Positions 7,308 through 53,889 of a stretch of 64,000 nucleotides of DNA are shown one piece after another. Origin of the DNA: Candidatus Riflebacteria bacterium HGW-Riflebacteria-2 (GTDB taxonomy: Bacteria > Muiribacteriota > Ozemobacteria > Ozemobacterales > Ozemobacteraceae); assembly GCA_002839435.1 (NCBI GenBank), contig PGYA01000007.1, positions 14,756 to 78,755 of the forward strand, in the 5' to 3' direction. Made by a program: the position numbers and the translations under genes. The notes under the pieces are model-generated. The model had not been told where the DNA came from. It searched no databases and saw nothing but the letters and a program-made list of their open reading frames with translations. The number at the start of each line of letters is the position of its first letter. Position 1 is the stretch's first letter.

Positions 7308-8300
<993 letters not shown>

Positions 8301-19498: not shown

Positions 19499-19577
19499 CC
19501 TCTGTCACTTTTTTGCAACAAATAGAAGGAAAATTTCGTATAATTATACAGGCGAATGTACAGGGGGAGGTATTTAT

Positions 19578-20789: not shown

Positions 20790-20806
20790 GCTGAAAGGAT
20801 CAAGCA

Positions 20807-34624: not shown

Positions 34625-35053
34625 ATGCAGACACAGATACATCCATTCAGCAACGCCGACCGGCAGTGGTTGGCACGCAGCCTTGAGCGCGGTCGCGCGA
34701 TATGTACACACTTCAAGCTTCTGGAAACCAGCCGCGATGCTGCGGCGCTCGATCAGGCCTTTCTGCTCTGGGCCAGGTCGCCAGCCGGTGCTGGCCAATT
34801 CAGCGCCGATGAAATTGCCGACGGGCTCGGAAGTCTTTTTGGCGAACTGCTGCAGCGTCAGTTTAACTTCAGCTGGTGCCAGATCGAAGACCAGCATGGA
34901 CGTGAAATCGCTCTGCTCGAAGAAACTACTGGCAGCATCGTCATGCCGGTCAACGCGGTGCACAAACGCATCGAACCGGAACTACAGAAACAGCCATTTT
35001 TCGCGCCGATGTGGCAGATGATCGCCGCCCATCTTGAGAAAAAAGAAAACTGA
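34625..35053 (+). CDS. hypothetical protein (142 aa)
   Basis: ORF with protein-like composition. It overlaps alternative-frame ORFs, so the call is weak. Confidence 0.3.
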   Translation: MQTQIHPFSNADRQWLARSLERGRAICTHFKLLETSRDAAALDQAFLLWARSPAGAGQFSADEIADGLGSLFGELLQRQFNFSWCQIEDQHGREIALLEETTGSIVMPVNAVHKRIEPELQKQPFFAPMWQMIAAHLEKKEN

Positions 35054-35296
35054 AGAGTATCGCACAAAGACGCAGAGACACGAAAAAAGCCTTAAGACAG
35101 AAGAGTCTCACGCAGAGACGCTGAGGCGCAGGCAAAAGACAAAACCGAAGAACCGCGCACTAAGGCACGGAAACCCAAAGAAGACTTCAGTATGAGAGCA
35201 GAAGGCCCTCACGCAGAGGCCTGAGACCCTGAGGCCAGAAATATTAGAAAACTAATCTTTATTGCAAAACTAATCTATTTTGGTTATATTAGTAAT

Positions 35297-35554
35297 ATGA
35301 AAACCCTTAATGTTAGACTTGATGATTGGACACATAAAAACCTCAAGGCTCTTGCAGCTTTGAAAGAAACAACCATTGCGGAATTACTGAAAATGCTGGT
35401 CGGCAAAGAAATCGAAGAAAACCCTCAAGAGTGCGAACTTTGCCGCAAATTTGGGCATGAACCGAACGAAACTACCAGAAAAGCAATGGCTGAAAAAGGT
35501 GGCAAATCATTCAAGTCGATAAAAGCGCTCATGGAAGACCTGCAGAGTGATTGA
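35297..35554 (+). CDS. type II antitoxin (ribbon-helix-helix, DinJ/RelB-like)
   Basis: N-terminus MKTLNVRLDDWTHKNLKALAA has an RHH beta-strand/helix pattern. It overlaps the downstream YafQ-like toxin gene. Confidence 0.55.
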   Translation: MKTLNVRLDDWTHKNLKALAALKETTIAELLKMLVGKEIEENPQECELCRKFGHEPNETTRKAMAEKGGKSFKSIKALMEDLQSD

Positions 35555-35819
35555 CAAAATCCTTCGTAAAACCCAGTTTAAGAAAGACTTCAAGCGCATC
35601 ATCAAGCAGGGGAAAAATCCCCAGGAAATTTCAAAATTACTGTCCATGCTCATTGAAGAAAAGCCAATCCCGGAAAAGTACAAAGACCATCCTCTTATTG
35701 GTGATTACAGCGGTTATCGGGAACTCCACATAGCACCAGACTGGCTTCTGGTTTACAAAATTGAAGATAATACGCTGACCCTTGCAAGAACAGGTTCTCA
35801 CTCAGAACTTTTTGGCTGA
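35547..35819 (+). CDS. yafQ: type II toxin, YafQ/RelE family mRNA interferase
   Basis: KDFKRIIKQGKNPQEISKLLSMLIE...DHPLIGDYSGYRELHIAPDWLLVYKIEDNTLTLARTGSHSELF matches the YafQ consensus. Confidence 0.8.
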   Translation: MIDKILRKTQFKKDFKRIIKQGKNPQEISKLLSMLIEEKPIPEKYKDHPLIGDYSGYRELHIAPDWLLVYKIEDNTLTLARTGSHSELFG

Positions 35820-36036
35820 TTTTAGAAGAGCCGCGCACAAAGACACGGAGACACAAAGAAAGCCTTTATTTTTTAGAGTTGCAGTCAAATAATTGCCGCC
35901 GGCTTTGTGACTTTGTGGCTCTGTGCGAGAAGAAAAGTCTCACGCTGAGCTGCTGAGGCGCAGGTTTTGCCTTTTTGTTGAAAAACGGGTATTATTATAC
36001 ATATAATCGTATTCGAAATTACAGGAGGCCAATCTT

Positions 36037-36264
36037 ATGGAACGACCAAGAGTTACTTTTACGATCGACAGGAACATCCTGCTCGAGCTCGACAGTATTG
36101 CCAAAGAATTGGGCCAGAAGAAGAGCCACATTGTAGAACAGGCGCTGGAACTTTACTTTGATACTGTTGATACGATGATCGCTGACCGTAGGCTTGACCG
36201 GCTGGCCAGCGGCAAAGATAAAACTATTCCGGCTGAAGACGTCTGGAAGGAACTCGACCTGTAA
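36037..36264 (+). CDS. relB: type II antitoxin (RHH, RelB/DinJ family)
   Basis: RBS CAGGAGG. RVTFTIDRNILLELDSIAKELGQKKSHIVEQALELYF is an RHH fold. Its stop codon overlaps the toxin start. Confidence 0.7.
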   Translation: MERPRVTFTIDRNILLELDSIAKELGQKKSHIVEQALELYFDTVDTMIADRRLDRLASGKDKTIPAEDVWKELDL

Positions 36265-36527
36265 TGTACCGACTGGAATTCCTGCCGGGTGCTGTTAAAG
36301 ATTTGAAAAAGCTGGATTTTGTCGTTCAAAAAATGATCAAAAACAAGCTTGAGATTCTTGCAGACAACCCTGGACAGCTGAAAAACGACATTAAAGCTCT
36401 CAAAGGAAACCATACCGGCAAATACAGATTGCGGGTCAGAGATTATCGCGTGATATTTCAGAGGCGAGATGATGTTCTGATAATTCTGATTGTCGGCATC
36501 GGGCATCGAAAAAGCGTGTACAAATGA
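36264..36527 (+). CDS. relE: type II toxin, RelE/ParE family
   Basis: YRLEFLPGAVKDLKKLD...KYRLRVRDYRVIFQRRDDVLIILIVGIGHRKSVYK matches the RelE consensus (RVGDYRIIY...IGHRKDVY). Confidence 0.8.
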   Translation: MYRLEFLPGAVKDLKKLDFVVQKMIKNKLEILADNPGQLKNDIKALKGNHTGKYRLRVRDYRVIFQRRDDVLIILIVGIGHRKSVYK

Positions 36528-36663
36528 CGATCATAACCATCATTCCGCACCCATAATGTTTTTTCGAGACAGAAGAGACTCGCACGAAGACACAGAGATA
36601 CTAAGAAGATTTTGAGCTGCTCAGCAGCAGCCCACACAAGACAAGCAATCATGACCTGAAATT

Positions 36664-36752
36664 AATCTGCGCCTATCTGTGTAATCACCCGGGCGCTTCC
36701 ATCCTGATGCGCCCAAGTATCACCCACATCCTGTGGGCGACGGCGGATACTG
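36664..36752. repeat. composite MITE-like repeat, copy A (AATCTGCG...ATCACCCGGGCGCTTCCATCCTGATGCGCCCAAGTATCACCCACATCCTGTGGGCGAC.GCGGAT)
   Basis: Near-identical to 47746-47830. Related copies lie at 39587 and 50054. Confidence 0.7.
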
Positions 36753-36785
36753 TCTTTCTCTTAAAAGTCGTATCGGGATCGAAAT

Positions 36786-39371: not shown

Positions 39372-39550
39372 TTGCAGTTCGATTGACAAAAGAAATAACC
39401 GAAGAACCTCTCACGAAGGCACAGAGACACCAAGAAAAGCTTTAGCATGAATAGCAGCAAATTTCACATTGAAGCGCTGAAAAGGCTTATCGTGCGTGTC
39501 GCAATCGACATCAGGCCTTCATCCTGCGCGCATAATGACAGAGAGAAACT

Positions 39551-39586: not shown

Positions 39587-39681
39587 AAATCTGCGGCAAT
39601 CTGTGTAATCACCCGGGCGCTTCGCCCCTGGGAGCCCTGCGGATTCTCCTATGCTTCTGTGCCTTTGTGGCTTTGTGCGAG
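39587..39681. repeat. composite MITE-like repeat, copy B (shorter)
   Basis: AAATCTGCGGCAATC...ATCACCCGGGCGCTTCGCCCCTGGGAGCCCTGCGGATTCTCC...CTTTGTGGCTTTGTGCGAG. Confidence 0.65.
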
Positions 39682-39846
39682 ATTTGTTTGTCAAAAAATT
39701 TTGCTCTAGTGTAAAAAGTATTTTCGAGAATTAACTACAACCCATATCAGCTACAGTGTATAATATAAGAGAGACAGCGAAAACACAGCCGGATTCTGGC
39801 ATGGTTGTTGCGACATAAAAGCTGGTTGGGCGAGAAGGGGTTGCGT

Positions 39847-42800
39847 ATGTACCGGATATTTCTTTATCTGAGGCGCCGCGGTTTTACGCTGGCCGAAATT
39901 CTGGTGGCGACGGTAATCGCCGGATACTGCATCATGCCGATAGTTGGCAGCATGCAGGGCGGAATCAGACATACCGAAAACTTCAATCACCGCGAAAAAC
40001 TGCGCCTGCTCGCCCGGTCGCGCCTCAATAAAGAACTTGCAGCTGGCGCTTTCGACCATTCCGCAGTTAACTCAGCCCCGGCCTACCATTATGTTTTCAG
40101 GCACCCTGTCAGCGCAGACTATATTTCCTTTGACACTGGAATGACCACCGACAATGCCAGCTTCCCTGACCTGATCACCCCTTCGGGAATCGGAATCGAT
40201 GATCTGCTGTACTCATACAGAGTCAATGTTTCGGTCAGAGAAAATGTAACCATTGCGACAACATCTTCAAGTATTGATCCCAATATGCTAAAGGGTCCAC
40301 GCGGCCTCAAAGCAGTTGTAGTTAATGCCGAACTGCTCGACGGCCCCTATGTTATAGCTACTGATTCGATAAGCTACTTTTCACTGCTGACAGTGCCGAG
40401 TTTCGGCGACCAGTTCATCTGGATTTCCAACTCGAGCATGGTGCGAATTCTGGCCGTAGATGCCAGTACCCGCTCTATTGCTGAAACATTCCAGCTACCC
40501 TACGATACGAGCAAAGCCTTCGACAAAGCCGAACAGGACCCTTTTCGACCATGGAACATCGACCTGCACCCCAGTCGTCGATTAATTGGCGTTCAGTCAA
40601 GACAAAAGATAAGGCTGCTCAACATAGACAAATCGCACTCCTCCTATCAGCAAACTTCCGGATTTGTCGATGTTGCCAGCCATCTTGGTACCGACCCGGA
40701 TCCAGCCAAAAACATTTATGCCGACGCAAAAGCTGACGCAGCCAAAGCCGAAGAAGATCGCGGCATCGTTTTTCGACCAGACGGCAAGTATTTTTTCGTC
40801 AGCAGTCATAGTGACAAATCTTTATACGTCTACAAAATCGATGTTGCCACTTTCACCGATCCGGTCTGGTGGTCACAGGCAGCAGCGTCTGTTGCTCTGG
40901 CCAAACGTTTTGGCCTGAAAGCTGCTGAAGAAGGCGATTCTGATACAGAACACGATAAATTCACCGATATGATCGCCGGCAACGATGGCTATCTCTACCT
41001 CTCCATAAAAGACAAGAAAAACATCATCAGATTTCCCATGTATCCAAACTCTTTCGCCAGCGGCTGGACTTATGAATACGTACTTAAACCAACCGTCGAC
41101 AAAACGGTAAACTCGGTCTGGACTTCAAAAGATGGCAAATATGTGTATATACTCGATGATGAGTACAGGGTCGCCCAGTTCAAATCACACCCATTTGGCA
41201 AAATAGGATACGCCACATTATTCTCAGATGAAAAAATGCGTGATTTCAAGCTTTCTCAGGACTCAAGATATCTTATGGTAACAGATGTCAAAAGTGCGTC
41301 AAACAAGGGTGGTTTGTGGATCAAGAAAATCAATGAAATCAACTTTGCCAGCAATCCCACAATCGCCGCAGTGGATATGAGCAAAGTATATCCTGGTTAT
41401 GCGCTGAAATCTGACCTCTGCGTTCTTTCTCCGACTGGTTATGAAGTTCTATTTTCGCATAAAGACAAGCCTGAGCTGTATTTTGCCGGCATCGCCAGTG
41501 CAGCGAATAATGATTACACATCAAGTCTGCCCGCAGGCCAGATACTGGTTTACGACGGCACCGGCAAACCCTGCGCCGACATCGTGACGCGTGTGCCCGA
41601 GCACATGCTGGTAGGAACAAGTGACAGCAGAATCAAATTCTTCGACCTGCACACTTTCAAATTCGACGAAGACAGAGAGATAACTGGTCTGCGCGGAGTA
41701 CCGAGAACCATCGGGGTAAGCCCGCAGGGCACCAGATTCAAGGTCGGTTATGACGATGTCGTAAGCGGCCTCGATGCCTATAACATGATAGATTCCTCCA
41801 ACATTTCGGTTAATGAACTTACAGGAAACAGCAGGATAGTTTCTTATGCCGCCGACGATGAAACAGTGCGCCATGCCAGCGGTGTTGCAACATATTCAGA
41901 TAACTTTTATGCCACTCTGGAAGTAGATGGCTCAGCTACCCCTAACGGCTACTGGTTAAGAGACGCTCCCATCGGCAGTTTTGGCGACAACAACATCGAT
42001 GCAGCCTGGGTTCCACAGGACATGAAAGCCATGCCGAAAGGCGGCTTTCTCATGCTTTACAGAAAGAGCGATGGTTCCGCCATGCTCGACTGGGTCGGCA
42101 AAATCAAATGGGGCGCCAGCAAAGGCAAATACCAGCGCTTCGCCCGCTGGATAAGTCCATCCGCACCGTCCACCCTTCCCACATCACCAGAGCCAGGAAA
42201 CCCCGGAAATGTAGACACATCGGTTGGGTGTATTCAATTGCTCCAGGCAAGCAATTTCCCAGTTGGCACGACAATAACCCATGTCACTTACACTACGGGT
42301 CCCTTTGCCGGCACAAGATATTTTACTCCAGTGATAGTAGAAATAAATGGTGGAGTAAAAACAATAAAAGACTATGCAACATCGATTTCATCAACCCAGA
42401 ACCTTACTGATATTACGTCCGCAATCTCATGGCAGGTCAATGGAGGTCTGATTCAAACGTCCAATTATTATGTCGGCTTCTGGTTTGGACAGATCGGAGG
42501 CAGCGCTGGACAGGGCTTATTCGATCATGCCAATACAGGCGGTTCTTATGGATCAGACTACGTTAACGCTGGCCCAACAGCCATAACCTCGGCACAAATT
42601 GTTGGTGGCAACCATGTAATAACTTCTGGACCTAACGATACCAACAGGCAATACCCGGTTAAATTCACCGGGACTTTACCAGTAACCAGTTCTTTCCCGC
42701 CACGCTATGCACAGAATATCGCGATCAGCCAAGACGAAGGTTTCCTGGCCATTGAAGCTTCCGGAACTCCGCATGTGGTCTATCTTTATGACTTCGCCAC

Positions 42801-45711
42801 CAACAATTTCGGTCACGAAACGCAGCTGCCCGGTTTGATCATGGATAACCGGAATACCGGCACCGATTTTAATGTGGCGGTTCCAGCCGGCTCCCGCTTT
42901 ACCGGAGGTGGAATCAAATTGAGAGAAACGTTCACCGCCAACCACGCCTGGGCATATTTAAAAACTGAGCCGGTGAATTATAACAACGCCACCACTGACG
43001 CCAAACGTGTTTTTGGCTATTTTCAGCCAAAAGGTACGGTTGATAAGTTTTATCTGATCAGAGAGGATGTAGCCAGACTCTTTGTCGATAACTCACCGCC
43101 CAATGAATTGCTTAAAATCTGGTCTCTGGCTACCACACCATACGGGCCCGGTGCAAGACAGATTCTTGCCAGCACAAGCGTATTCATACAGGCTGATCAC
43201 GGTACTGACGGCGTGGGCAATGGAGGCATAGCCCCAATGTATACCACGAATGCTGCAGTATCAACAATAACTCAACCATCGGTGTCAGGAAGTAAATACG
43301 GCACAACGGCGAACTGGCAACACATAACAGCCTCTGAGACCAGACCGCTCAATTTTCAGCCGATTTTGCTGCGCTCTTATCCGTTAAGCGGGTGTAACAC
43401 GGTTCATGATACCGCGCTGGCATTTTCGCGCGATCTCGCCAACCCGATACTGTTTCAGCTCGACCCCGGCCAGGACGACATCTGGGCGTTAAAACCCGGT
43501 GCCTCATTCACCCGAATCGATATTGGCGGGACTTTCGAAGTGTCTGACAAACAGTTTGTTGTCAGTCCCGATGGACAGAAGCTGATTTTTGCCGAAGACA
43601 CAGGCTCTAACCGAATCTTTGTAACCAATATCGGCAATCCCGACAGCTTTGCTTTTGATGGTACCCCTGTGACGCAGTCTTCTATTTCTCCGGCAAGTTT
43701 TGGCAGCCTGATAACTGCAGTCGGCTGTAGTGCTCCGCCGAAAGCGCTCGGCGTCATGCCGTTCAATTCTTACAAATCAACCTCGCGTCTCGGTAAATAC
43801 GAGCAGGTGGCTACTCTGCCAAACCTTATTTATGGCAACAACAACGCGACTCTGGCAAATGGTGCCATCTACATAATGGGCGGCGCAATTAGCGAGGGGG
43901 CAGCGCCATTAAACAAAATATACAAATTTGAACCAATGGCAACGCCGGCAACCGTTTCAACGCAAATAGCAACTCTGACTCAGACAACCAAACTCAATTC
44001 AGTTGTTGCTTACGACAACAAAATATATAGCTTCAACGGCGCCAAAAACGCCGTTGTGGGCGATGTTACCAGCTGGGTTCAGCGCTTCGACCCCGCCACC
44101 GACCAGGTAATTTCTTCATTCGATCCAGTTGCCGGAACACCGACAGAAATTCAGGTCTCGTTTAATCAAGTTAGTTTGCCATCCCCTACCACGGTTACCG
44201 ATTCTGGCGACATAAGCGGATCTGCTGGTCCAGGTTCTCAAGCATTTGATGGCAGTATTGCAATTGGTAGTGCTTGGGCAACAAATTCCAACAGCCAGTA
44301 TCTTGAATATTATGCAGGAAATACAAGTTTGTCATTTGTAGTTAATAAAATATGGGTTAATAATTCTGTTACCGATACTGATGGAGGAACACATGACTAT
44401 TCCTTTTTTGGTTATGATGGTTTATCGTGGATTCCTCTCCTTACTCACACGATTCCAGAAGCTTCTACAAACTATAGCCAAAACTTCAGTAATTCTAGCG
44501 CTTACCAAGCATATCGGTTTCAAACGACTTCAAGATGTGGCAGCTTTGCAAGCTACTACGGTGTACGTGAAATCAAATTTTATTTATCTGGTGTAATTAA
44601 AATACCTGCTGTGGCATTGACTTCCAACTCCGGGCCATCGCCGTATACTGCTTATCAAAGTAGTACGAATAGTGGAAACGACGGTTACAAAGCTTTTGAT
44701 TCTGGAATAACAACTACTTGGTGGGAGGCTGGCAACAACTCAAATGAATGGGTCGGGATTTACACAGGAAATCTCAGTGGTGAAGTTGTAAAATATGTGA
44801 GAATTCTTTGCAACGAATCGGCTGGAAGACTTAATAATTTCTGGATAGAGGGAGCTTATAACAACACTTTTTCATCCTCAGTAATTATACCATTTTCAGA
44901 TGGAGCTGCTGTTGCAGCCCATCAAAACACCAATGCCAGCTATGTTTATACATTGAATAATATCATTCCATATACTTATTATAGACTATATTGTCAATCT
45001 ACTCATGATGGTAACAATCCAAGGATATACAATGTTGAGTTTTATACTGAATCTGGAGGATTAATTTCTGCTGGCGAACCCATCATGACCAAAACCATTA
45101 CCGACGCGCGTGGTTCTATCGCAGTATCGAGCAACGCAGCCTGCCAGACACCATACGGAATCGTCATCGCCGGCGGTTATACGGGTGCGGCAACGACCAC
45201 CGCCATAGTTTACTGGCCACATGCGCTCGATGAATATACCGATGCAACCAACCATTCATTTGGCATTTCGCGCTCTCTGCCACCTCTGCCAACCAGAATG
45301 ATGATGCATTCTCTGGTCTGGCACAAGGGAAAACTTTATCGCATAGGCGGAAGGCCAGACCCATCAAGCACCGCCACCAATATTCACATTTTTGACTTTG
45401 ACTCCAACAGCTGGTCAGCTGACATTCTCTTTACTAACACCGCATATTTTTCCACCAATGCAACTCTTGCTTTACAGAAGTATTCAGCCGCGGCCTGTTC
45501 TTTTGGCGATGAGATATTTGTGTTTGGTGGTTATAACAGCAGCGGCGACCTACAAAGCACTGCATTCGCATGGAACCCTGAAAGTACCGTGGTCAGGCAA
45601 CTTGGTGACATGCCGGTAGCAAAAGCCGGCCTGACCGCCGTTCCCTGTGGCTCATCGATCTACCTCATCGGCGGCACCAGCGACGCATCCGTTTACAAGT
45701 TCACCCCATGA
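39847..45711 (+). CDS. giant (~1955 aa) type IV pilin-like protein: prepilin N-terminus fused to beta-propeller, discoidin-like and Kelch-like domains
   Basis: RBS GAGAAGGGG then ATG 39847. N-terminus MYRIFLYLRRRGFTLAEILVATVIAGYCIMPIV is a textbook prepilin cleavage/methylation motif. Lactonase-type YVYK/YVTN repeats follow. Two F5/8-C-like segments sit around aa 1400-1650. C-terminal Kelch-like blades (KLYRIGG..., EIFVFGGYNS..., SIYLIGGTS). Confidence 0.7.
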   Translation: MYRIFLYLRRRGFTLAEILVATVIAGYCIMPIVGSMQGGIRHTENFNHREKLRLLARSRLNKELAAGAFDHSAVNSAPAYHYVFRHPVSADYISFDTGMTTDNASFPDLITPSGIGIDDLLYSYRVNVSVRENVTIATTSSSIDPNMLKGPRGLKAVVVNAELLDGPYVIATDSISYFSLLTVPSFGDQFIWISNSSMVRILAVDASTRSIAETFQLPYDTSKAFDKAEQDPFRPWNIDLHPSRRLIGVQSRQKIRLLNIDKSHSSYQQTSGFVDVASHLGTDPDPAKNIYADAKADAAKAEEDRGIVFRPDGKYFFVSSHSDKSLYVYKIDVATFTDPVWWSQAAASVALAKRFGLKAAEEGDSDTEHDKFTDMIAGNDGYLYLSIKDKKNIIRFPMYPNSFASGWTYEYVLKPTVDKTVNSVWTSKDGKYVYILDDEYRVAQFKSHPFGKIGYATLFSDEKMRDFKLSQDSRYLMVTDVKSASNKGGLWIKKINEINFASNPTIAAVDMSKVYPGYALKSDLCVLSPTGYEVLFSHKDKPELYFAGIASAANNDYTSSLPAGQILVYDGTGKPCADIVTRVPEHMLVGTSDSRIKFFDLHTFKFDEDREITGLRGVPRTIGVSPQGTRFKVGYDDVVSGLDAYNMIDSSNISVNELTGNSRIVSYAADDETVRHASGVATYSDNFYATLEVDGSATPNGYWLRDAPIGSFGDNNIDAAWVPQDMKAMPKGGFLMLYRKSDGSAMLDWVGKIKWGASKGKYQRFARWISPSAPSTLPTSPEPGNPGNVDTSVGCIQLLQASNFPVGTTITHVTYTTGPFAGTRYFTPVIVEINGGVKTIKDYATSISSTQNLTDITSAISWQVNGGLIQTSNYYVGFWFGQIGGSAGQGLFDHANTGGSYGSDYVNAGPTAITSAQIVGGNHVITSGPNDTNRQYPVKFTGTLPVTSSFPPRYAQNIAISQDEGFLAIEASGTPHVVYLYDFATNNFGHETQLPGLIMDNRNTGTDFNVAVPAGSRFTGGGIKLRETFTANHAWAYLKTEPVNYNNATTDAKRVFGYFQPKGTVDKFYLIREDVARLFVDNSPPNELLKIWSLATTPYGPGARQILASTSVFIQADHGTDGVGNGGIAPMYTTNAAVSTITQPSVSGSKYGTTANWQHITASETRPLNFQPILLRSYPLSGCNTVHDTALAFSRDLANPILFQLDPGQDDIWALKPGASFTRIDIGGTFEVSDKQFVVSPDGQKLIFAEDTGSNRIFVTNIGNPDSFAFDGTPVTQSSISPASFGSLITAVGCSAPPKALGVMPFNSYKSTSRLGKYEQVATLPNLIYGNNNATLANGAIYIMGGAISEGAAPLNKIYKFEPMATPATVSTQIATLTQTTKLNSVVAYDNKIYSFNGAKNAVVGDVTSWVQRFDPATDQVISSFDPVAGTPTEIQVSFNQVSLPSPTTVTDSGDISGSAGPGSQAFDGSIAIGSAWATNSNSQYLEYYAGNTSLSFVVNKIWVNNSVTDTDGGTHDYSFFGYDGLSWIPLLTHTIPEASTNYSQNFSNSSAYQAYRFQTTSRCGSFASYYGVREIKFYLSGVIKIPAVALTSNSGPSPYTAYQSSTNSGNDGYKAFDSGITTTWWEAGNNSNEWVGIYTGNLSGEVVKYVRILCNESAGRLNNFWIEGAYNNTFSSSVIIPFSDGAAVAAHQNTNASYVYTLNNIIPYTYYRLYCQSTHDGNNPRIYNVEFYTESGGLISAGEPIMTKTITDARGSIAVSSNAACQTPYGIVIAGGYTGAATTTAIVYWPHALDEYTDATNHSFGISRSLPPLPTRMMMHSLVWHKGKLYRIGGRPDPSSTATNIHIFDFDSNSWSADILFTNTAYFSTNATLALQKYSAAACSFGDEIFVFGGYNSSGDLQSTAFAWNPESTVVRQLGDMPVAKAGLTAVPCGSSIYLIGGTSDASVYKFTP

Positions 45712-45764
45712 TTCAGGAGAAGAGGCTCACGCGGAGGCGCAGAAAGGTTATTATGACTGAAAAC

Positions 45765-45850
45765 TGTCATTGCGAGGAGGGCATCAGCCCGACGCGGCAA
45801 TCTCCATGTCCAAAAAGATTGCTTCGTTGGCTTTGCCGACTCGCAATGAC
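45765..45850. repeat. palindromic-element copy (full hairpin) downstream of the giant gene
   Basis: TGTCATTGCGAGG...GGCAATCTC...GATTGCTTCG...CTCGCAATGAC. Confidence 0.7.
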
Positions 45851-45892
45851 GGCAGGAACCTGCTCTGCGGCTCTGCGTAAGAAAAATTCTTT

Positions 45893-46507
45893 ATGAAAAT
45901 TTTGTTTAAAAAAGGTTACACGCTGATGGAATTGCTGGCCGGGCTGGCGCTGATTTCGATAGTTTCCAGTATCGTATTGCCTGGTATTGCCAACTTCTAT
46001 TCAGGCCTGCAGGTCAAAACCGAAGGCGAAATTTTTGTGCAGAACGTCAGGCTGGCTCGTTACAAGGCAATAGGAGAGCAGGCCGTCTACCGCCTGATAT
46101 TCGACACCGACCCTGTGGTTACGCCGCCATTGGCCTATCGTGTACAAACCCACGCTGCTTATGACGACCCACCTATCGGCACATATGACTCAGGTTCCTA
46201 CGACGACGGCGACTATAACAGCACAAACTGGTTCGATGCGATCGAAGCCGAAGAAATCATTTTCGACACCGGCACCGAAATCAAAACCAACCTGCCGCAG
46301 GTGCTTTATTTCTGGCCAAATGGGCAGATATACACAGATCCAGATATAAATAGCCCGTTTGCAACACCGATTCCAGAATACTACATCGCTTTCAGCTACG
46401 GAAGTGCCGGGATCAAGGTTGTCGTTACCCCAATGGGTATTTTCAGTTCTGAATCTTATGCTGCCGATATTGTAGATGCCGAAGATGACAGCGAGGTTTT
46501 GTGGTGA
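45893..46507 (+). CDS. pseudopilin (GspH-like)
   Basis: MKILFKKGYTLMELLAGLALISIVSSIVLP is a prepilin motif with Glu5. Confidence 0.65.
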   Translation: MKILFKKGYTLMELLAGLALISIVSSIVLPGIANFYSGLQVKTEGEIFVQNVRLARYKAIGEQAVYRLIFDTDPVVTPPLAYRVQTHAAYDDPPIGTYDSGSYDDGDYNSTNWFDAIEAEEIIFDTGTEIKTNLPQVLYFWPNGQIYTDPDINSPFATPIPEYYIAFSYGSAGIKVVVTPMGIFSSESYAADIVDAEDDSEVLW

Positions 46508-47013
46508 ATAAAAAGGGGTTTTCGCTGGCTGAGATAATCGTTTCCACAATTGTCATGACCATGCTGATGGTGAGTGTCATTGGCTACATTCAGTACAGCG
46601 GCGAAATCTGGCAGGACGGTTACAGCAAAATTTCAGGTATTAACTACATGCGTATGACCACCGAAATACTGCGACAGGACCTGCTGCGGGCGGTAACCAT
46701 TGCATCGCCAAGCGCAGTTCTTGGAGGAAATGCCACTCCGACTGCCCAGCTTAACTACAGAATATCAGGGCTTCCCGGCAGTTTCACAATAAGAATCGCT
46801 ACAGACAGTGATTTGCTGCTGAGATTATCAGACGGAGTTGCCGCCATGAATAATCGTATAGCAAAAAATGTGGCATCGTTCAGCGTAATGCGCATCTCAA
46901 CCTGGACGCTGCAGATACATATTCAGATTCATAACGATATCACTGAAGAAGATGAGACCTACCGGATAATCGCCAGTGACACATTGTCTTTTATGGCACC
47001 AGGCGCGGGATGA
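46501..47013 (+). CDS. pseudopilin
   Basis: VNKKGFSLAEIIVSTIVMTMLMV is a prepilin motif. GTG start overlaps the upstream stop. Confidence 0.6.
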   Translation: MVNKKGFSLAEIIVSTIVMTMLMVSVIGYIQYSGEIWQDGYSKISGINYMRMTTEILRQDLLRAVTIASPSAVLGGNATPTAQLNYRISGLPGSFTIRIATDSDLLLRLSDGVAAMNNRIAKNVASFSVMRISTWTLQIHIQIHNDITEEDETYRIIASDTLSFMAPGAG

Positions 47014-47022
47014 GGAGCAACC

Positions 47023-47688
47023 ATGAACATTGAAAAGCCTCGTGGGATGGCCGGTACTATATTGGTAATTCTGATTTTCGGGCTGCTGGTTTCGATATCT
47101 ACTGCCTATATCAAAATGGTACAAACAGAGACTCAGGTTCAGGGTATGATCGACAACTCCGATCGCGCGCTCGACGCTGCATTTTCAGGTGTCAACATGG
47201 TAATTGCCATTTTACAGAGCCAGGAAGATAAAATTCCCTTCATAAACGACACGACCACAGCGAAATCAAGAATCTATTTCATCCGACCCGGCTATCTCTC
47301 TACCGACTGGCTTGGGATCAATATCAACCCTCTCACCTCAGCAAGTTTTCCAAACGCTACCAGCAGCGACTGGTTTTATCTGAACGAGAGTCTTGATCTT
47401 TTTGACTATGGCGACACTGGCAGCAGCACAAAACCATATCAATTCAGAACACACTCTTACCCCGGAACAACGGGCGCCGGTGTAATCATACCGGCAAGCT
47501 ATACGATCAAGTCACAGGGTCGCTTTCTTGTTTATGGTCCAGACCAGACAACGGTTCTTGCAACTTATACCTCGCAAATCATAGCGGACTGTTCTATAGA
47601 TTTCACCCGCAAAGTAATTCAGCTTAAACGCTGGCGTTATATGCCATACGAAGACAACGCCTCATTTGCCAAAGCAGTTTACTACTGA
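47023..47688 (+). CDS. PilX/GspK-like minor pilin
   Basis: RBS GAGGAG. N-terminus PRGMAGTILVILIFGLLVSISTAYI is a PilX_N-like anchor without Glu5. Confidence 0.5.
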   Translation: MNIEKPRGMAGTILVILIFGLLVSISTAYIKMVQTETQVQGMIDNSDRALDAAFSGVNMVIAILQSQEDKIPFINDTTTAKSRIYFIRPGYLSTDWLGININPLTSASFPNATSSDWFYLNESLDLFDYGDTGSSTKPYQFRTHSYPGTTGAGVIIPASYTIKSQGRFLVYGPDQTTVLATYTSQIIADCSIDFTRKVIQLKRWRYMPYEDNASFAKAVYY

Positions 47689-47745
47689 TTCAAGGTTGAA
47701 CCCCTGCAAAGATCGCTGCTTAAAGCATACCCCACCACCCTTAAA

Positions 47746-47913
47746 AAATCTGCGTTAATCGGCGGCATCACCCGGGCGCTTCCATCCTGATGCGCCCAAG
47801 TATCACCCACATCCTGTGGGCGACTGCGGATGTTCTCCTTCTTCTCCGGGTTTCTGCTCTTCTGCCCAAAGATTTCCGGCTGCCTTCTTTGCGGCTTTGT
47901 GTCTCTGTGCGAG
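47746..47913. repeat. composite MITE-like repeat, copy C (longest, ~170 bp)
   Basis: Contains all three modules in order: AATCTGCG..AATCGGCGGC, ATCACCCGGGCGCTTCCATCC...GCGGATGTTCTCC, and CTTTGCGGCTTTGTGTCTCTGTGCGAG. Confidence 0.7.
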
Positions 47914-47951
47914 GTATTGTATAATAGAGAAAATGCGGGGCGGAGGTTTTT

Positions 47952-48578
47952 ATGGCGGGATCGACAAAGAAAAAGCAGCAGCGGTATTCTTACGCAGATT
48001 ATCTGACCTGGGATGACGACAATCGTTACGAGATAATCGACGGTGAAGTATTCGATATGACTTCGCCGAGTTTGCTTCACCAGAGCATAAGTGGTGAATT
48101 GTTCAGACAAATGGCAAACTATTTTGAAGATAAGCCATGTAAAGTATTCGCAGCACCTCTAGACGTGCTGCTGGCAAAGAATGCCAGCAGATCGGACGAA
48201 GTATTTACCGTGGTGCAGCCTGATATCATGGTCGTCTGCGACCCGAAAAAACTCGAGGAACGCGGCATAGTCGGCGCGCCCGACCTGGTGGTAGAGATTA
48301 TCTCGCCGTCAACTTCATCGAAAGACAACATTATCAAGCGCCGGGTCTACGAGCAGGCCGGCGTCAGGGAATTCTGGCTGATAAGCCCGGTCGAGCGTCT
48401 GATCAGGGTGAACAAACTCGGCAAAGACGGCCGCTTCGAGCGCGAAGAAATTTATGACGACACGGCAGAGATCGAGATTGCGCAGTTTGCCGGTTTGAGC
48501 GTCGACTGCCGCCGGCTGTTTCCACCCCTGCCGAAAGTTAAACGGGTAAAATCGCCACCACCACCAAAGTATGGGTGA
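47952..48578 (+). CDS. Uma2-family (DUF820) putative endonuclease
   Basis: YSYADYLTWDDDNRYEIIDGEVFDMTSPSLLHQ...VVQPDIMVV...GAPDLVVEIISPST matches the Uma2 consensus. Confidence 0.8.
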   Translation: MAGSTKKKQQRYSYADYLTWDDDNRYEIIDGEVFDMTSPSLLHQSISGELFRQMANYFEDKPCKVFAAPLDVLLAKNASRSDEVFTVVQPDIMVVCDPKKLEERGIVGAPDLVVEIISPSTSSKDNIIKRRVYEQAGVREFWLISPVERLIRVNKLGKDGRFEREEIYDDTAEIEIAQFAGLSVDCRRLFPPLPKVKRVKSPPPPKYG

Positions 48579-48673
48579 GATTCTCTTGACGCGGTCTGTT
48601 GTACATGCGATATAATAAAGATTGAAAAACGCGATGCTGTTCTCGTTGAAACTTTGCAAGCGGAGATGTGTTT

Positions 48674-48970
48674 ATGAGCCCGGAAGTATCTGAGGTCATC
48701 AGGATTCTTTCAAGCCTGAAAGCCGAAATTAAAGCGCGATTCAAGGCTGATCTCAAAGGAGTTTTCGGTTCTTTCGCCCGCTCTGAAGCAACCCCGGACA
48801 GCGATATCGACATTCTCGTCGATTTTCTGCCATCTGCGAACCTTTTCGATATGGCCGAGCTTACACTTTATTTAGAAGACAAGCTGCATCGCAACATCGA
48901 CCTGGTGCCAGAAAGTGGCATCAGAACGGAATTACGGCAAACAATTCTGCAAGAGGCAATCATGCTGTGA
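48674..48970 (+). CDS. mntA: minimal nucleotidyltransferase (MntA-type antitoxin)
   Basis: [27 protein letters not shown] is the NTase GS-x9-DxD motif. Its stop overlaps the HepT start. Confidence 0.75.
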
Positions 48971-49308
48971 GAAATTTTGTTCTATACCTCGAGGACATTC
49001 TTGCAGCTATTCTTGCCATTGAAGAATTCGTTAAGAACATGGATCTGCAAGGGTTCAAACTTGACGACAAGACCTCGAGCGCGGTGATTCGCAAGTTCGA
49101 AATCATTGGCGAAGCAGCCAAAATGGTGCCCGTAGAAGTTCAGGAGAAATACCCAGAAGTTCCATGGCGAGCCATGGCCAGAATGTGCGACAAACTCATT
49201 CACTTTTACTTTGGGGTGCAACATGAGCTGGTCTGGCACACCATAGCTGATTCTCTGCCAGCCCTGAAGCCACATATCGAAAAGGCGATATCTGAACTGA
49301 AGAATTAA
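48967..49308 (+). CDS. hepT: HepT-like (DUF86) toxin
   Basis: About 113 aa with a DUF86-like helical pattern. It contains R-x4-HxY-like KLIHFYF. The pairing with the upstream NTase supports the call. Confidence 0.7.
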
Positions 49309-49430
49309 TATTATCAGATTGCGATTGCGCCGTTTGCTGGTTTGAGCATCGACTGCCGCCGGCTGTTTCCACCCCTGCCAAAGCCGAAAAAAGTAAAATC
49401 GCCGCCAGCGCCGAAGTATGGGTGATGGTA

Positions 49431-49754
49431 TCAGCTCATTGCCAGCTGGGTTCGAATAGCCTTTTCGACTTTGATCAGATCGTCTGATGAAATGTTGCTG
49501 AACAGGTTAGCGAGACGGGTTTTGCTGACTGTCGTTATCTGGTCGGCCATGGCCTTTACCTGGCGACCGCCCAGCGTCACATAAGCCTCGCTGGGGTAAA
49601 GTCGGTCGGTGCTGGTAGTCAGCGGTATGACCTGAACACGATTGAGAAAACGATTTGAAGAATCATTACTGACTATAATTGCCGGGCGGGTCTTTTTTAT
49701 TTCACCGCCAGCCGCCGAAGCAAAATCGACCCACCAGACTTCACCACGGTTCAT
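49431..49754 (-). CDS. mazF: MazF/PemK family toxin
   Basis: GEVWWVDFASAAGGEIKKTRPAIIVSND...VQVIPLTTS matches the PemK/MazF consensus. Confidence 0.8.
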   Translation of the reverse strand: MNRGEVWWVDFASAAGGEIKKTRPAIIVSNDSSNRFLNRVQVIPLTTSTDRLYPSEAYVTLGGRQVKAMADQITTVSKTRLANLFSNISSDDLIKVEKAIRTQLAMS

Positions 49755-49971
49755 CTATGGTTTCTCCAAGGGTTCCTTCGCACCATTCTTCGGCTTCACG
49801 TTCTCTTGCTTCGTCTTTTGCCATTTTTTTGTATTCAGAATCGAGAGAGTTGCCCAGAACATGTGGCCGCAGCAAATCTTCGATAAACTGGCTGATTTTG
49901 CCGCGGCCGATAACCCGGTGCAGCCTTTCGTATACCTGTTCGTCGAGCGTGATAGTCAATTTTTTATGCAT
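49741..49971 (-). CDS. antitoxin (RHH/MazE-like) partner of MazF
   Basis: 76 aa, MHKKLTITLDEQVYERLHRV, with an acidic C-terminus. It overlaps mazF by 14 nt. Confidence 0.6.
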   Translation of the reverse strand: MHKKLTITLDEQVYERLHRVIGRGKISQFIEDLLRPHVLGNSLDSEYKKMAKDEAREREAEEWCEGTLGETIDEPW

Positions 49972-50053
49972 TTACGGATCCCTCAATACGTATTATACAC
50001 GTATATATTGCAACTTGTCAAAACTGACAGCAGCAAATGCTGCCAGTTTCAAA

Positions 50054-50144
50054 AAATCGGCGGCAATCGGCGCAATCTGCGGTTTCTGCTCTTCTGGCCT
50101 AAGTTGGCGGCTGCATTCTTTGCGGCTTTGTGTCTTTGTGCGAG
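50054..50144. repeat. composite MITE-like repeat, copy D (internally deleted)
   Basis: AATCGGCGGCAATCGGCGCAATCTGCGG...CTTTGCGGCTTTGTGTCTTTGTGCGAG. Confidence 0.65.
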
Positions 50145-50169
50145 AAAATGACCGGCGATTAATGCAGCG

Positions 50170-50904
50170 TTACAGGCTGTTGAAGTCTTCGGCGGGCTGG
50201 AAGCCGGCGGCCATAAGAATATCGGCGCCGCGCTCGCGGTCGTCGGCAAGGTTGCCGGTACCAGCACTGTACTGATAAGTTGATGGCGCGGCTTTGGGCA
50301 TGTTCAGTGAGCGCAGCAGATCGTCGATTTCGCGGGGCGGCTCAAATTGAAGCAGATCGCCGGTTTTTTCGAGATAAGTGCGGTCGGCGATGATAAAAGC
50401 GCCAACACCATGATCTTCGGCGGTTTCGGGGCACCAGATGAAAACATAGTCGGCCGGGTCGCCGGCCGGCGAATAGACATAGCTTTCATTCATTATCTGC
50501 AGCTGATGATCAACGATTGAAACGTCGTAGTTATCGTCGGAATCGAGCGTAACCCGCAGTTTTACGCGCATTCTTTCGGGGCGGGGAGCGGCATATTTGA
50601 GGAAAATGCGGTTGATGGTTTCCTGGCGGTCAGGCGGGCATTGCAGAGCAAAGCTGATCTGGCTGGCATAAAGTTGCAGGTGCTCTAAGGCTTTCTGCTG
50701 GCCGGCATCGTTGCGATCGTAGTCGCCAAGCCGGGTAATTTCGCCAAAGATGTTGGAAACCTCAAATGCGTCAACAATATATGCTTTTTCATAACTTATC
50801 AGCCTGATATCGGCCCAGATTTCGAGCAGGTTCTGACTGGCGCTGGCAGAACCGGCCGCCATCGCAAAAAAGCACAGAGTTAAAATTGCCAGAAATCTTG
50901 TCAT
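50170..50904 (-). CDS. secreted protein of unknown function
   Basis: Signal peptide MTRFLAILTLCFFAMAAGSASA. Confidence 0.45.
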   Translation of the reverse strand: MTRFLAILTLCFFAMAAGSASASQNLLEIWADIRLISYEKAYIVDAFEVSNIFGEITRLGDYDRNDAGQQKALEHLQLYASQISFALQCPPDRQETINRIFLKYAAPRPERMRVKLRVTLDSDDNYDVSIVDHQLQIMNESYVYSPAGDPADYVFIWCPETAEDHGVGAFIIADRTYLEKTGDLLQFEPPREIDDLLRSLNMPKAAPSTYQYSAGTGNLADDRERGADILMAAGFQPAEDFNSL

Positions 50905-51173
50905 CGCAGAATCACAAACCTTAATTCACGTAGTAGAATTACAATTGTTTTGTACACAAGAGCATTTAAAAGCAAGTTTTATGCCAGTTGCAGACTGACC
51001 ACTGATAAGCGTTAGCGCTCATTCAGTCTGGAAATGCAGAATATCTGCCAGCTTTATGCCAAAATATCAGCTCCTGTGCTATCGCTATAATAGTCGGAAG
51101 GTGAGTTATGTCAGCTCTATACATGGAATGAAAGTATGGTATTCTGATGCAAATGTTTACAGGAGATTGACTT

Positions 51174-52022
51174 ATGAAGACGTATAAACCGGTGTTTATT
51201 CTGCTGGCCGTTCTGCTGTTTACGAGCAGCAGTGTTATGGCTGAAGTCGATGCTCCGGGCCAGAAACTGCAGCAGAAGGAAATCGACAAGGCAACAGCAC
51301 AATGCCGCGAAATAATCAGACCTTACAGTTCTGAATCAGGATTTCCGGAGATTCTGCCAGAAGGATTACGCGGCAAAGACTGGGAAACGATACGCCGAAA
51401 AGTTGCTGAAGACTGCTTTAAATGTTCGAAAATAATGCTTGATCTGCTTGAAAAAAACAGGCTGCCGATCAAGCTGCGGCTCGGCGCGAAGTATTTTCGC
51501 AAAAGATTCATTATGGGAACCGCTATTTACCCGCACAAAGATGAAAGCGACAAGATTCATGAATTTCAGTGCCGCAGTTTCGCAAGTGACTGTGAAGTCG
51601 GCCTCAACGAAATGCACTACTGGCAGAAAGCCGAACCTGAATCAACCGGTGACGCCCGGTGGTTGAAAACTGCCAGAGATGGTCTTGTCAGGGTTAAGCA
51701 GATGTTGCCGGTATTTCCTGATGAAATAGGCGGCGAAGAAGCCCGAGAATTCTGGCGACAGGCGGCCGAGAGAGCGACACAAGCCGGAAACGAGGCTGGC
51801 ATGACGGCAAGCCGCATCGGCGACTTCAATTCTCCGGCATGGCGCCTTAAATTTGCGATAAAGTATTGCAAGGCTGCTACCAGAGCTGCGGTTTCTGACA
51901 GTCTGCATGCGCGTGAATCTGACCCAGAATACTGGCGACTGGCTGTCATAAAGCTGCAGGAGTCTATCGAACCGCTTGGCAGCGAAATCGATGAACTGCT
52001 CAAATCTCTGTCCAAAAGATAG
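51174..52022 (+). CDS. secreted protein of unknown function
   Basis: RBS AGGAGA. Signal peptide MKTYKPVFILLAVLLFTSSSVMA. Confidence 0.45.
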   Translation: MKTYKPVFILLAVLLFTSSSVMAEVDAPGQKLQQKEIDKATAQCREIIRPYSSESGFPEILPEGLRGKDWETIRRKVAEDCFKCSKIMLDLLEKNRLPIKLRLGAKYFRKRFIMGTAIYPHKDESDKIHEFQCRSFASDCEVGLNEMHYWQKAEPESTGDARWLKTARDGLVRVKQMLPVFPDEIGGEEAREFWRQAAERATQAGNEAGMTASRIGDFNSPAWRLKFAIKYCKAATRAAVSDSLHARESDPEYWRLAVIKLQESIEPLGSEIDELLKSLSKR

Positions 52023-52307
52023 TCTCCAGCGCTGCCGGCCTTTTTGGCCTGCGCTTTGGGAGGTGCCACCAGCTTTACCGGGTCGCTGATAACCTTGAAG
52101 TCGAGATTTGCCAAGGCGCGAGCCGCTACGGCCAGAAACCTTTTCAAGTTGTTCAAAATGGCTATCATGCATAAGGAATGGTGCAAAGCAATCGAATTTT
52201 CAGATTTTTCGGCGAGATTTCACGGCATTACGTTTTTTCTGTCTCTGGTGTATGCTTATAAGATATACAAGTGACTTTGAGCATTAAGCAAATAATCGGA
52301 GGCTTTT

Positions 52308-53876
52308 ATGGCCAGGCATAAGGTTATCGGCGTAGTTTTTATTCTCGCAGTCTTTATGGCTTCGCTCATGCCGGTTAGAGCTGAGCAGTTGATGAATCGC
52401 ATCGACCGATTTTTTGTATTTGGCAGTAATCTGGCCTGGTTTAATAACAATTATGGCGCTGATATCGGCACCAATCATGCTGAAGGTGGCTGGTCACCGA
52501 CCTTTTCTCAGGAACACTGCGAAAAGGTGTTTGCCAATCTCGAAAAGATGGGGTGCCCGGTGATAAGAATCTGGGCGTTTGAAAGACAGGAAGGTCTTAC
52601 TTTTACGGCTGACCTGACTTCTGACCCGGCTTATCCTTATCATGAAGTTACCGGCCTCGACGACAAATTCATGGAGAATTGCCGCTTTTTGATGGATTGC
52701 GCGGACAGACACCATGTAAAAGTTTACTGGTCTCTGCTTAACCATCTGATTCGCGAAGAACAGGATGGCCGACACATGCGCATCATTACCGACAAAAAGG
52801 TGCGTAAAAGCTATATCAACCATGCGGCACTGCCATTTTTGCAGGAATTTGCGCGCCACCCGGCTTTTTTTGCCGTCGATATCATGAACGAAGCTGATGG
52901 CGCGATTGGCGGCATAGATTTTCTCAGCGGTGGCATGAATCCCAAACTTGGCTGCACCTGGAAACAGATGCGGGTATTTATCAAGGAATGTGCAAATGCT
53001 TTTCATCAGGCAATTCCCGGCATAAAAGTCACCTGCAGCAGTGGCTGGCATGAATATAAAAACGTTAAGGCCGGCCGTTTTTCAGGGCTTGGCCTGGATT
53101 TTTATGACTGGCATTCTTATAAAGACGAGCCTGATCTGCCGCATGCCCGCGAACTTAAGCTTGATAAGCCGGTTATCATTGGTGAATGCGGGCCAAAAAC
53201 TCAGGAACCGGACGAGCACTATTCTCTGCAGGGTAAAAACTGGAACGCCTATCTGGCGCAGGCCCGCAAAGGCTATGCTGGGCTGTTGACCTGGTCTTAT
53301 GGCAATCAGGGCGCTGCCAGTAACTTCACCATGGTTAACAAAGACCATAGCTGGCGCAGCGGAGCAAAATTCATTTATCGGGCAACGCGGGGCGAACTGA
53401 TTCCAGACGCTGGGCCGCTGTTGCTAACTGATGCGGAAGCAAAGGCTCTGAAAACCCTTAACAGCGCCCTGAAAATTGTAATCGACCTGAAAGACCATTC
53501 GAACCCGAGATCACTGAATACTGCACAGAAGCGGCTGGTATGGCTCGGCAACGAAACCGCAAAATATTATCCCTATGTAAATCCAAGATACGCTGTTTTC
53601 AGCTTTATCAGAGCCCTGAATGAGATTTCCAATGCCGGTGAATGGGAACTGCGCAACCGCTCAGAAGGCTTTGCCGAAAGAACTGCTGCGTTACAGAAAA
53701 TCGGCGCGGCTCTGCTCGATCAGGAGGGCACCATCAAGTCGACCAGGCTGGCGCAGGCAACCGCACGGCTGGCCGATTTCCTTAAAAGAGACCCGGCCGC
53801 AAAAAACACGGCAACCCCGTCGCCATTTGATGTAGATAGTGCAGGAAGCGGCGCCGCTGTGCCCGAGGTAGAATAA
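52308..53876 (+). CDS. secreted glycoside hydrolase family 5 (mannanase/cellulase-like)
   Basis: Signal peptide. VIRIWAF, DIMNE (candidate acid/base NE) and IIGECG (candidate nucleophile Glu) are in GH5 order. Confidence 0.65.
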   Translation: MARHKVIGVVFILAVFMASLMPVRAEQLMNRIDRFFVFGSNLAWFNNNYGADIGTNHAEGGWSPTFSQEHCEKVFANLEKMGCPVIRIWAFERQEGLTFTADLTSDPAYPYHEVTGLDDKFMENCRFLMDCADRHHVKVYWSLLNHLIREEQDGRHMRIITDKKVRKSYINHAALPFLQEFARHPAFFAVDIMNEADGAIGGIDFLSGGMNPKLGCTWKQMRVFIKECANAFHQAIPGIKVTCSSGWHEYKNVKAGRFSGLGLDFYDWHSYKDEPDLPHARELKLDKPVIIGECGPKTQEPDEHYSLQGKNWNAYLAQARKGYAGLLTWSYGNQGAASNFTMVNKDHSWRSGAKFIYRATRGELIPDAGPLLLTDAEAKALKTLNSALKIVIDLKDHSNPRSLNTAQKRLVWLGNETAKYYPYVNPRYAVFSFIRALNEISNAGEWELRNRSEGFAERTAALQKIGAALLDQEGTIKSTRLAQATARLADFLKRDPAAKNTATPSPFDVDSAGSGAAVPEVE

Positions 53877-53889
53877 GCCTGGCGCACAA

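Follow-up and report, generated by a model that had tools for sequence, protein, structure and literature searches.

The window, the 64,000-nucleotide (nt) stretch analysed here (contig PGYA01000007.1, positions 14,756 to 78,755 of the forward strand; assembly GCA_002839435.1 of Candidatus Riflebacteria bacterium HGW-Riflebacteria-2), carries a gene for a very large modular protein with a pilin-like N-terminus (39847..45711, + strand; ‘the giant’), followed on the same strand by three small pilin-like genes. One open frame spans 39805..45711 (+) without interruption in the open reading frame (ORF) scan and, read from the ATG at 39847, which is preceded by GAAGGGG, encodes 1,954 amino acids (aa) plus a stop codon, so that the coordinates and size (~1955 aa) in a preliminary description, made from the letters alone, are correct. 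Colinear full-length homologs (1,950–2,150 aa) exist in at least nine independent assemblies, and the architecture is therefore not an artefact of a frameshift or a false join; a frameshift or pseudogene was rejected. A fused MFS/spermidine-synthase gene lies upstream of the giant and a Uma2-family endonuclease gene downstream of the four-gene cassette, for which promoter and terminator scans yielded no usable operon boundaries.

The giant begins with a basic leader peptide of 12 residues (MYRIFLYLRRRG; aa 1–12; 39847..39882), read from the sequence, which ends in Gly-1 and is followed by Phe+1 and Glu+5 (MYRIFLYLRRRG|FTLAEILVATVIAG; in short form MYRIFLYLRRRG|FTLAEILV, or RRRG|FTLAEILVATVIAGYCIMPIVG around the cleavage site). 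The adjoining pilin module (aa 13–186; 39883..40404) was delimited from the alignment and an AlphaFold2 (AF2) model of aa 1–960 (33-sequence alignment, mean predicted local distance difference test score 78.3, predicted TM-score 0.62), and consists of α1, with Phe+1, Glu+5, Gly+14 and Pro+19, and an antiparallel β-sheet head. In this model α1 is a single helix of 53 residues (15–67) and the strands of the head, assigned by DSSP, are residues 79–85, 92–97, 120–132, 155–163 and 174–181; the N-terminal ~190 residues are thereby predicted to match the α1-plus-sheet architecture of pilins. Propeller matches dominated the Foldseek search, which was made with the 960-residue model as a whole. The basic leader and the G|F..E signal are found in all 32 homologs compared, down to 24% identity (with Ala at -1 in homolog P0024). 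F13, E17, P31 (+19) and G34 are invariant in the alignment, and G12 and G26 (+14) nearly so. A prepilin motif also lies within the first 80 residues of 46 of 69 further representatives, the remainder being mostly N-truncated fragments. The type IV prepilin signal named in the preliminary description is thus conserved and accompanied by a predicted pilin module, and by sequence and predicted fold the giant qualifies as a type IV pilin, save for marginally sub-threshold scores against curated hidden Markov models (HMMs), given below.

Behind the pilin module, aa 187–770 (40405..42156) form ~11–12 four-stranded blades in the AF2 model (DSSP), probably a tandem propeller. The best Foldseek matches of this region are tandem WD40-type double propellers (E ~1e-17), with the YVTN propeller 1l0q at TMt 0.61, while Pfam gave only single-blade matches to WD40, Arylesterase and Lactonase, all sub-threshold. 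The repeats had been called lactonase-type, which is not established: Lactonase (PF10282) scored 12.7 bits against a cutoff of 21.7, on one blade only, and membership of the Lactonase/SGL families (PF10282, PF08450) was rejected, although the blades themselves are present in the model and are, by fold, generic tandem WD40/YVTN-like. The next segment, aa 771–948 (42157..42690), is an optional or allelic β-sandwich insert (strands within 775–945 in the AF2 model) with no Pfam match and no recognised family. It is followed by a middle region (aa 949–1290; 42691..43716) that is conserved family-wide and had no Pfam match other than a faint one to PD40 and none in a PDB profile search.

The C-terminal part of the giant is built around a Kelch propeller, of which the N-terminal part occupies aa ~1291–1435 (43717..44151; Kelch_6 at 37 bits, with Kelch_1 and PF24681, at aa ~1333–1418) and the C-terminal part, with a linker, aa 1766–1954 (45142..45708; Kelch_6, Kelch_1 and PF24681). 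Total scores were 74.9 bits for Kelch_6 (cutoff 25.3), 57.0 for Kelch_1 (20.1) and 60.7 for PF24681 (50); the first, well above its cutoff, bears out the C-terminal Kelch blades proposed earlier. The blades (aa ~1330–1420 and ~1820–1950) lie on both sides of aa ~1436–1765, and the propeller would therefore be interrupted by an insertion. This consists of two tandem modules, apparently related to the F5/8-C/CBM32 type (CBM, carbohydrate-binding module), at aa 1436–1583 (module 1; 44152..44595) and aa 1584–1765 (module 2; 44596..45141), which are homologous to each other by hhalign (98.4%, E 5e-15, 137 columns). A five-sequence profile of module 2 matches the carbohydrate-binding module 2yb7 over nearly its whole length (E 1.3e-9), the discoidin-domain CBM32s 2rv9/4zxe at 2e-3 and the CBM32 of the sialidase NanJ at 0.15, and ortholog P0010 passes Pfam F5_F8_type_C (PF00754; 49.3 bits) at the position aligned with module 2. 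The giant itself gave no Pfam discoidin match even at E<=10, and neither a single-sequence PDB search of the region nor the module 1 profile found a PDB match. Of the two discoidin modules of the preliminary description, the assignment is thus carried by the module 2 profile, the homology of module 1 and the P0010 match, but not by any direct Pfam match. In other homologs the corresponding region carries Laminin_G_3/LamG, pentraxin, malectin or legume-lectin domains. No catalytic family scored above threshold in the giant, only weak matches to NANM and to galactose-oxidase-type Kelch being seen.

The first small gene (45893..46507; KKGYTLMELL, ...KKGYTLMELLAGLALISIV) encodes a 204-aa GspH/FimU-like minor pilin that passes both N_methyl (22.4 bits; cutoff 21.2) and TIGR02532 (24.9; 16.3). 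Its best and longest hhalign alignment is with E. coli GspH (92%, 63 columns), a profile search that goes beyond its own family first reaches GspH/FimT pseudopilins with PF12019, and NCBIfam gave weak matches to XpsH, GspH and ComGD; with GspH-type scores below the family cutoffs, the protein is best termed H-like and not a certified member. The second gene (46501..47013; KKGFSLAEIIV, ...KKGFSLAEIIVSTIV) overlaps the first by 7 nt and encodes a minor pilin of 170 aa, probably GspJ/PilW-like, in which the motif is KKG|FSLAE and F7 and E11 are invariant among orthologs. N_methyl (18.4 bits) and TIGR02532 (13.9) were sub-threshold, and hhalign gave 87% with GspJ over 61 columns, restricted to the N-terminal third, versus 10–36% with GspG, GspH and GspI. 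The third (47023..47688; PRGMAGTILVIL, ...PRGMAGTILVILIFGLLVSI), starting 9 nt past the second, encodes a 221-aa GspK/PilX-like minor pilin without Glu+5, whose nearest match by predicted structure is the pseudopilin GspK/XcpX of the type II secretion system (T2SS). The capping subunit of known tip complexes lacks Glu5 (PMC10191384), and the 221-aa protein therefore fits that position. In profile searches of the small proteins against PDB sequences, the matches of the H-like protein were confined to α1N and the other two proteins had none, and a Pfam scan of 51 members of the K-like family found nothing relevant. That all three genes are pilin-like, as first described, is consistent with these results: GspH-like by HMMs, hhalign and profile, GspJ-like by hhalign and GspK-like by predicted fold.

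The best homolog of the giant comes from Candidatus Rifleibacterium amylolyticum; it is a hypothetical protein of 1,960 aa, 73% identical across the full length, and its locus (L001) is syntenic with the window, with OEP, acetate kinase, the giant, three small genes, Uma2 and two HAMP-cyclases. A word-indexed search found 32 giant relatives of 1,240–2,400 aa. An exhaustive phmmer search with aa 1–770 against 1.84 billion cluster representatives gave 83 matches at E<=1e-3, 61 of them at E<=1e-10 and mostly of 1,400–2,500 aa, and all family members with a named source are from Riflebacteria, Ozemobacteraceae or Rifleibacteriota. The four-gene cassette is kept beside giants of 29–73% identity in unrelated neighbourhoods (adjoining gidA/trmE in locus L011), with small proteins of about 176–217, 162–220 and 208–226 aa across loci; the arrangement is looser at the most distant locus, L009. 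On the 5.2 Mb contig of locus L003, a 247-aa protein with a weak PilN match (8168–8911) is encoded ~1 kb upstream of giant homolog P0024, and a 2,968-aa PA14/GLEYA-type protein ~0.9 kb downstream of the cassette, beyond one 259-aa gene.

The multi-copy Verru_Chthon cassette (TIGR02596, TIGR02598, TIGR02599, TIGR02600) is likewise a set of four genes with prepilin-type N-termini, one of them encoding a very large protein. That the locus is a cassette of this type is highly improbable. Faint NCBIfam matches to Verru_Chthon proteins C and A were found, confined to N-terminal helices and far under the family cutoffs (12.3 bits versus 256.5 for protein C, 12.4 versus 332.3 for protein A), and the giant has no such match at all. 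The phylum also differs, and among members with a named source the exhaustive search found the giant family in Riflebacteria only; membership is effectively refuted. A literature search, confined to the searchable library, found no description of the giant family and nothing on Riflebacteria pili, on proteins combining prepilin and kelch features, or on the Verru_Chthon cassette.

Comparison with the Ca. R. amylolyticum protein (P0001) revealed very uneven divergence along the giant. Amino acid identity is 93% in α1, 88% in the pilin head and 64–74% in the propellers, rises to 99% in the insert (771–948) and 96% in region 949–1290, and falls to 63–64% in the Kelch parts, 46% in module 1 and 41% in module 2. 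At the DNA level, a tract of ~1.5 kb (~42040–43520), to which the middle region belongs, is 98–100% identical to L001, compared with 46–88% elsewhere in the gene and ~82% in housekeeping neighbours. The insert is present as the 99% allele in P0001 and as a same-length allele of 42% identity in P0002 and L012, from independent assemblies, and is absent from P0003–P0009, L013 and L014, with its left junction at 42154/42155 in all comparisons; the middle region is 94–97% conserved among several independent assemblies. Judged from these alignments, recombinational module exchange is concentrated in the putative binding parts.

The ~42040–43520 tract may reflect either recent recombination between lineages or strain chimerism of the assembly. 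In the latter case the window gene would be partly a composite of alleles from co-occurring strains or species and the exact 1,954-aa protein would exist in no single cell, the family itself being real. Besides the contrast between the tract and its flanks, two observations fit such a composite. A lookup of the exact protein sequence found no database record, and an independent 45 kb MEGAHIT contig (L023; ENA ERZ27239240 k141_11483), 100% identical over window positions 45172–56507, stops at 45172, within the giant gene and shortly past module 2. This end fits an assembly-graph break from allelic variation in module 2. However, the same mosaic pattern and the same insert junction recur in several independent assemblies, and the reading frame stays unbroken from end to end and runs parallel to that of full-length homologs, so a chimera appears rather improbable; even if it were one, the nature of the locus would be unchanged. 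The family architecture is secure on this evidence, the particular allele combination of the window gene being a candidate.

The four genes probably encode the minor-pilin set of a type IV filament, resembling a type IVa pilus (T4aP) or T2SS, in which the giant is an I/J-type subunit acting as a glycan-binding adhesin at the tip, a reading we hold with moderate confidence. Starting from the gene structure, signal conservation, predicted pilin folds, lectin-type modules, cassette conservation and mosaicism, all observed or computed, we infer processing, tip location, ligand class and machine as follows. A prepilin peptidase encoded elsewhere would cut after Gly12, and the four α1 helices would join in the inner membrane into a tip or priming complex, with the Glu5-less K-like subunit at its apex and the filament growing beneath. 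This would place the ~1,770-residue extension of the giant (tandem propeller, optional β-sandwich, middle region and Kelch propeller with its two CBM32/discoidin-like modules) at the pilus tip, where it may bind glycans on polymers, particles or other cells. The giant would then play the part that the non-pilin PilY1/PilC has in classical T4aP, fused straight to a pilin, and recombination that swaps or deletes binding modules among lineages would diversify specificity. The envelope is taken to be diderm because the window carries genes for a TolC-like OEP and RND proteins. A very large modular pilin with a glycan-binding role, as suggested in the preliminary description, is accordingly the best-fitting reading in silico of the signal, predicted fold, Kelch propeller and CBM-like modules.

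Several results weigh against this assignment. The giant narrowly missed both prepilin models, scoring 16.9 bits against N_methyl (PF07963) as a whole protein and 21.0 as an isolated N-terminus (cutoff 21.2), and 15.7 against TIGR02532 (cutoff 16.3). Its pilin module appears ambiguous between the I and J types: hhalign of the N-terminus gave 94% with GspG (over α1N only), 74% with GspI over 37 columns and 39% with GspJ, and 95% with the cassette’s own J-like family. By elimination, the I position in an H-I-J-K set would fall to the giant. The K-like call depends on a predicted structure, for which Foldseek found nothing significant, and no sequence method connects the 221-aa protein to GspK. 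Family members are annotated only as ‘hypothetical’ or ‘kelch repeat-containing’. Passage of a ~210 kDa multi-propeller head through an outer-membrane secretin is, to our knowledge, unprecedented for a pilin. Finally, no machine was found nearby: T2SSE, T2SSF, Peptidase_A24 and Secretin are missing from the larger ORFs of the window, E. coli K-12 GspC/D/E/F/L/M/O had no tblastn match across the window and 21 related loci (373 kb), and PilB/C/D/Q homologs are lacking from the window and from within 10 kb of the cassette in the same 21 loci. The neighbouring PilB/PilC/PilD/PilQ genes that the preliminary description proposed looking for are thus not in the window, and its suggestion of a distinct filament system is not supported. 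Without assembly-machine genes nearby, the cassette therefore looks like an orphan minor-pilin set, not a complete filament system, and would need a machine encoded elsewhere.

The missing machine and the size of the head, which may exceed the capacity of a secretin, would also suit a different role, in which the giant is a periplasmic or surface protein anchored in the membrane or tethered to a pseudopilus, and not a tip adhesin. Its prepilin-like N-terminus would then do no more than export the protein and anchor it in the inner membrane, or would belong to a short pseudopilus of the T2SS type in which the small pilins act as a short piston. Its other modules would capture glycans or process them close to the envelope, and the Kelch propeller could be galactose-oxidase- or NanM-like. 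The structural match of the K-like protein to GspK/XcpX, the resemblance of the H-like and J-like proteins to Gsp proteins and the weak NANM and galactose-oxidase-type Kelch matches all point in this direction. The Gsp matches are non-discriminating, however, as GspHIJK are homologous to FimU/PilVWX of T4aP (PMC10191384), and T2SS genes are equally missing from the window and the 21 loci. No catalytic family exceeded threshold, and lectin-type modules with fast swapping are typical of exposed binding proteins. A tethered, non-tip protein is for these reasons unlikely, and a tip adhesin is the reading retained here.

As a kind of protein, the giant is already known. Modular pilins comprise >1,200 proteins with 264 architectures, the most extreme quoted case having 860 residues (PMC8179133), and modular minor pilins include Streptococcus sanguinis PilB with a vWA module and PilC with a lectin module, as well as ComZ, CofB and GspK (Raynaud et al. 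2021, PMC8179133). Like these, the giant combines a class III signal with a small pilin module onto which binding modules, some of them lectin-type, are grafted, is expected at the tip and is encoded beside other minor pilins. Unlike them, it is ~4 times larger than S. sanguinis PilB/PilC and more than twice the 860-residue extreme, contains six or more additional structural units, among them three propeller regions, with ~1,300 residues lacking Pfam coverage, and belongs to a family limited to one candidate phylum, in which modules are allelic, optional or swapped. The novel features are the size (1.4–2.5 kaa), the architecture of several propellers with inserted CBMs, the H/J/K cassette dedicated to the giant, the confinement to a single phylum and the exchange of modules between alleles.

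In T4aP, PilY1 and four minor pilins form the priming or tip complex, with several sets per genome, as in Myxococcus (Treuner-Lange et al. 2020, PMC7541494). The locus resembles PilY1/PilC with FimU/PilV/W/X (PilHIJK) in that a large propeller adhesin is encoded with H/J/K-type minor pilins, in several sets per genome, with variable parts presumed adhesive and a presumed role in assembly priming and pilus capping. PilY1 is, in contrast, a non-pilin with a Sec signal that docks onto minor pilins, while the giant seems to hold one minor-pilin slot itself. The PilY1/Neisseria_PilC domain (PF05567/IPR008707) gave no match in the giant at E<=0.1 with the whole protein or at E<=10 with segments and, given also the class III signal, PilY1 membership was rejected, leaving a functional analogue only. 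The T2SS tip complex GspH-GspI-GspJ-GspK (PDB 3ci0, 5vtm) has the order H-I-J-K, compared with giant-H-J-K here. The K-like protein is shorter than GspK (221 versus 327 aa), aligns to 3ci0_K over 108 residues and probably does not have the GspK α-domain, and unlike in T2SS there are no gspC-G or gspL-O genes near the cassette. We know of no GspI or GspJ that bears a 1,770-residue extension. Kelch blades combined with what appear to be discoidin-fold CBMs recall galactose-oxidase-type Kelch proteins with F5/8-C (CBM32) domains and the CBM32/CBM62 modules of glycoside hydrolases, except that here the CBM-like pair sits between blades, no catalytic family scored above threshold and a pilin carries the whole.

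The functional variety of simple filaments is commonly attributed to modular pilins, and the examples studied carry one grafted domain. If the tip-adhesin reading is true, pilins of ~2,000 residues conserved across a phylum would set a new upper bound on the cargo of type IV filaments, and the family would make testable both the passage of bulky tip cargo through the envelope and pilin fusion versus PilY1 docking as alternative routes. A likely function could be offered for ~80 protein clusters now labelled ‘hypothetical’, and the locus would suggest how uncultured, polysaccharide-fermenting Riflebacteria attach to substrates or partners. The ~1,300 family-less residues and the Pfam-less K-like family (88 clusters) are candidate new domain families. 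A bolder and rather unlikely proposal is that Riflebacteria swapped a PilY1-type tip adhesin for a ~210 kDa pilin, the largest pilin family so far, whose exchangeable lectin modules serve as a reprogrammable glycan ‘grappling hook’. Were this so, export of the ~210 kDa head would need a wider secretin or passage route, or sequential threading of modules with folding outside the cell, and type IV filaments would have a new way to display very large cargo.

Two further pilin-like clusters in the window suggest heavy use of pilins by this organism and recall the multiple sets of Myxococcus (PMC7541494). The second cluster (1432–5656, - strand) includes a gene (3215–5656) whose 813-aa product bears an ordinary Sec signal and an extended (PSD)n repeat. 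It also encodes two prepilins, of 199 aa (GVSLVEILV) and 224 aa (KAFTIIEIVV), and between them a 183-aa protein whose N-terminus is PilX/GspK-like and has no Glu5. Its layout recalls a PilY1-style set of a large non-pilin with minor pilins and contrasts with the pilin-fused giant. The third (16383–22162, +) encodes a 703-aa protein that is GspK/PilX-like at its N-terminus (KRNGFAIMFAVVIG) and has no Pfam match, two prepilins (18508–18930 and 18917–19498) and then paralogous secreted proteins of 403 and 451 aa, which have an N-terminal SGSYLD motif in common and one of which contains an extended (TS)n tract.

The 181-nt gap between the giant and H-like genes contains a nested palindromic element (45766..45850, no strand assigned) resembling repetitive extragenic palindromic (REP) or miniature inverted-repeat transposable elements, with 100% complementary arms (GTCATTGCGAG/CTCGCAATGAC) and a further inverted pair of 15 nt nested inside; positions 22238–22262 (-) carry a related motif. 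The corresponding gap of Ca. R. amylolyticum is occupied not by the palindrome but by an inserted PDDEXK_3 gene. Short intergenic repeat families are found at 36664–36759, 39588–39630 and 47747–47842, and also at 35038–36607, 39387–39436 and 45718–45751, one reading AATCTGCG...ATCACCCGGGCGCTTC and another GAAGA.C.C.CAC.AAG.CAC.GAGACAC.AAGAA, in both orientations. REP-like copies flank the MFS/spermidine-synthase gene and the pilin cassette.

Downstream of the cassette, the Uma2-family endonuclease gene and a nucleotidyltransferase/HepT-like toxin-antitoxin pair (47884–49308) have 94% DNA identity to L001, versus a background of ~82%. The related loci L001, L004 and L015 have two or three Uma2 genes beside the cassette, and the window contains two copies of a 110-nt segment, at 48469 and 49316. 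Further on, two tandem genes for ~980-aa proteins with HAMP and adenylate/guanylate cyclase domains (53890–59722, -) also follow the cassette in L001, L004 and L005, where they are conserved, and could be signalling partners or mere syntenic neighbours.

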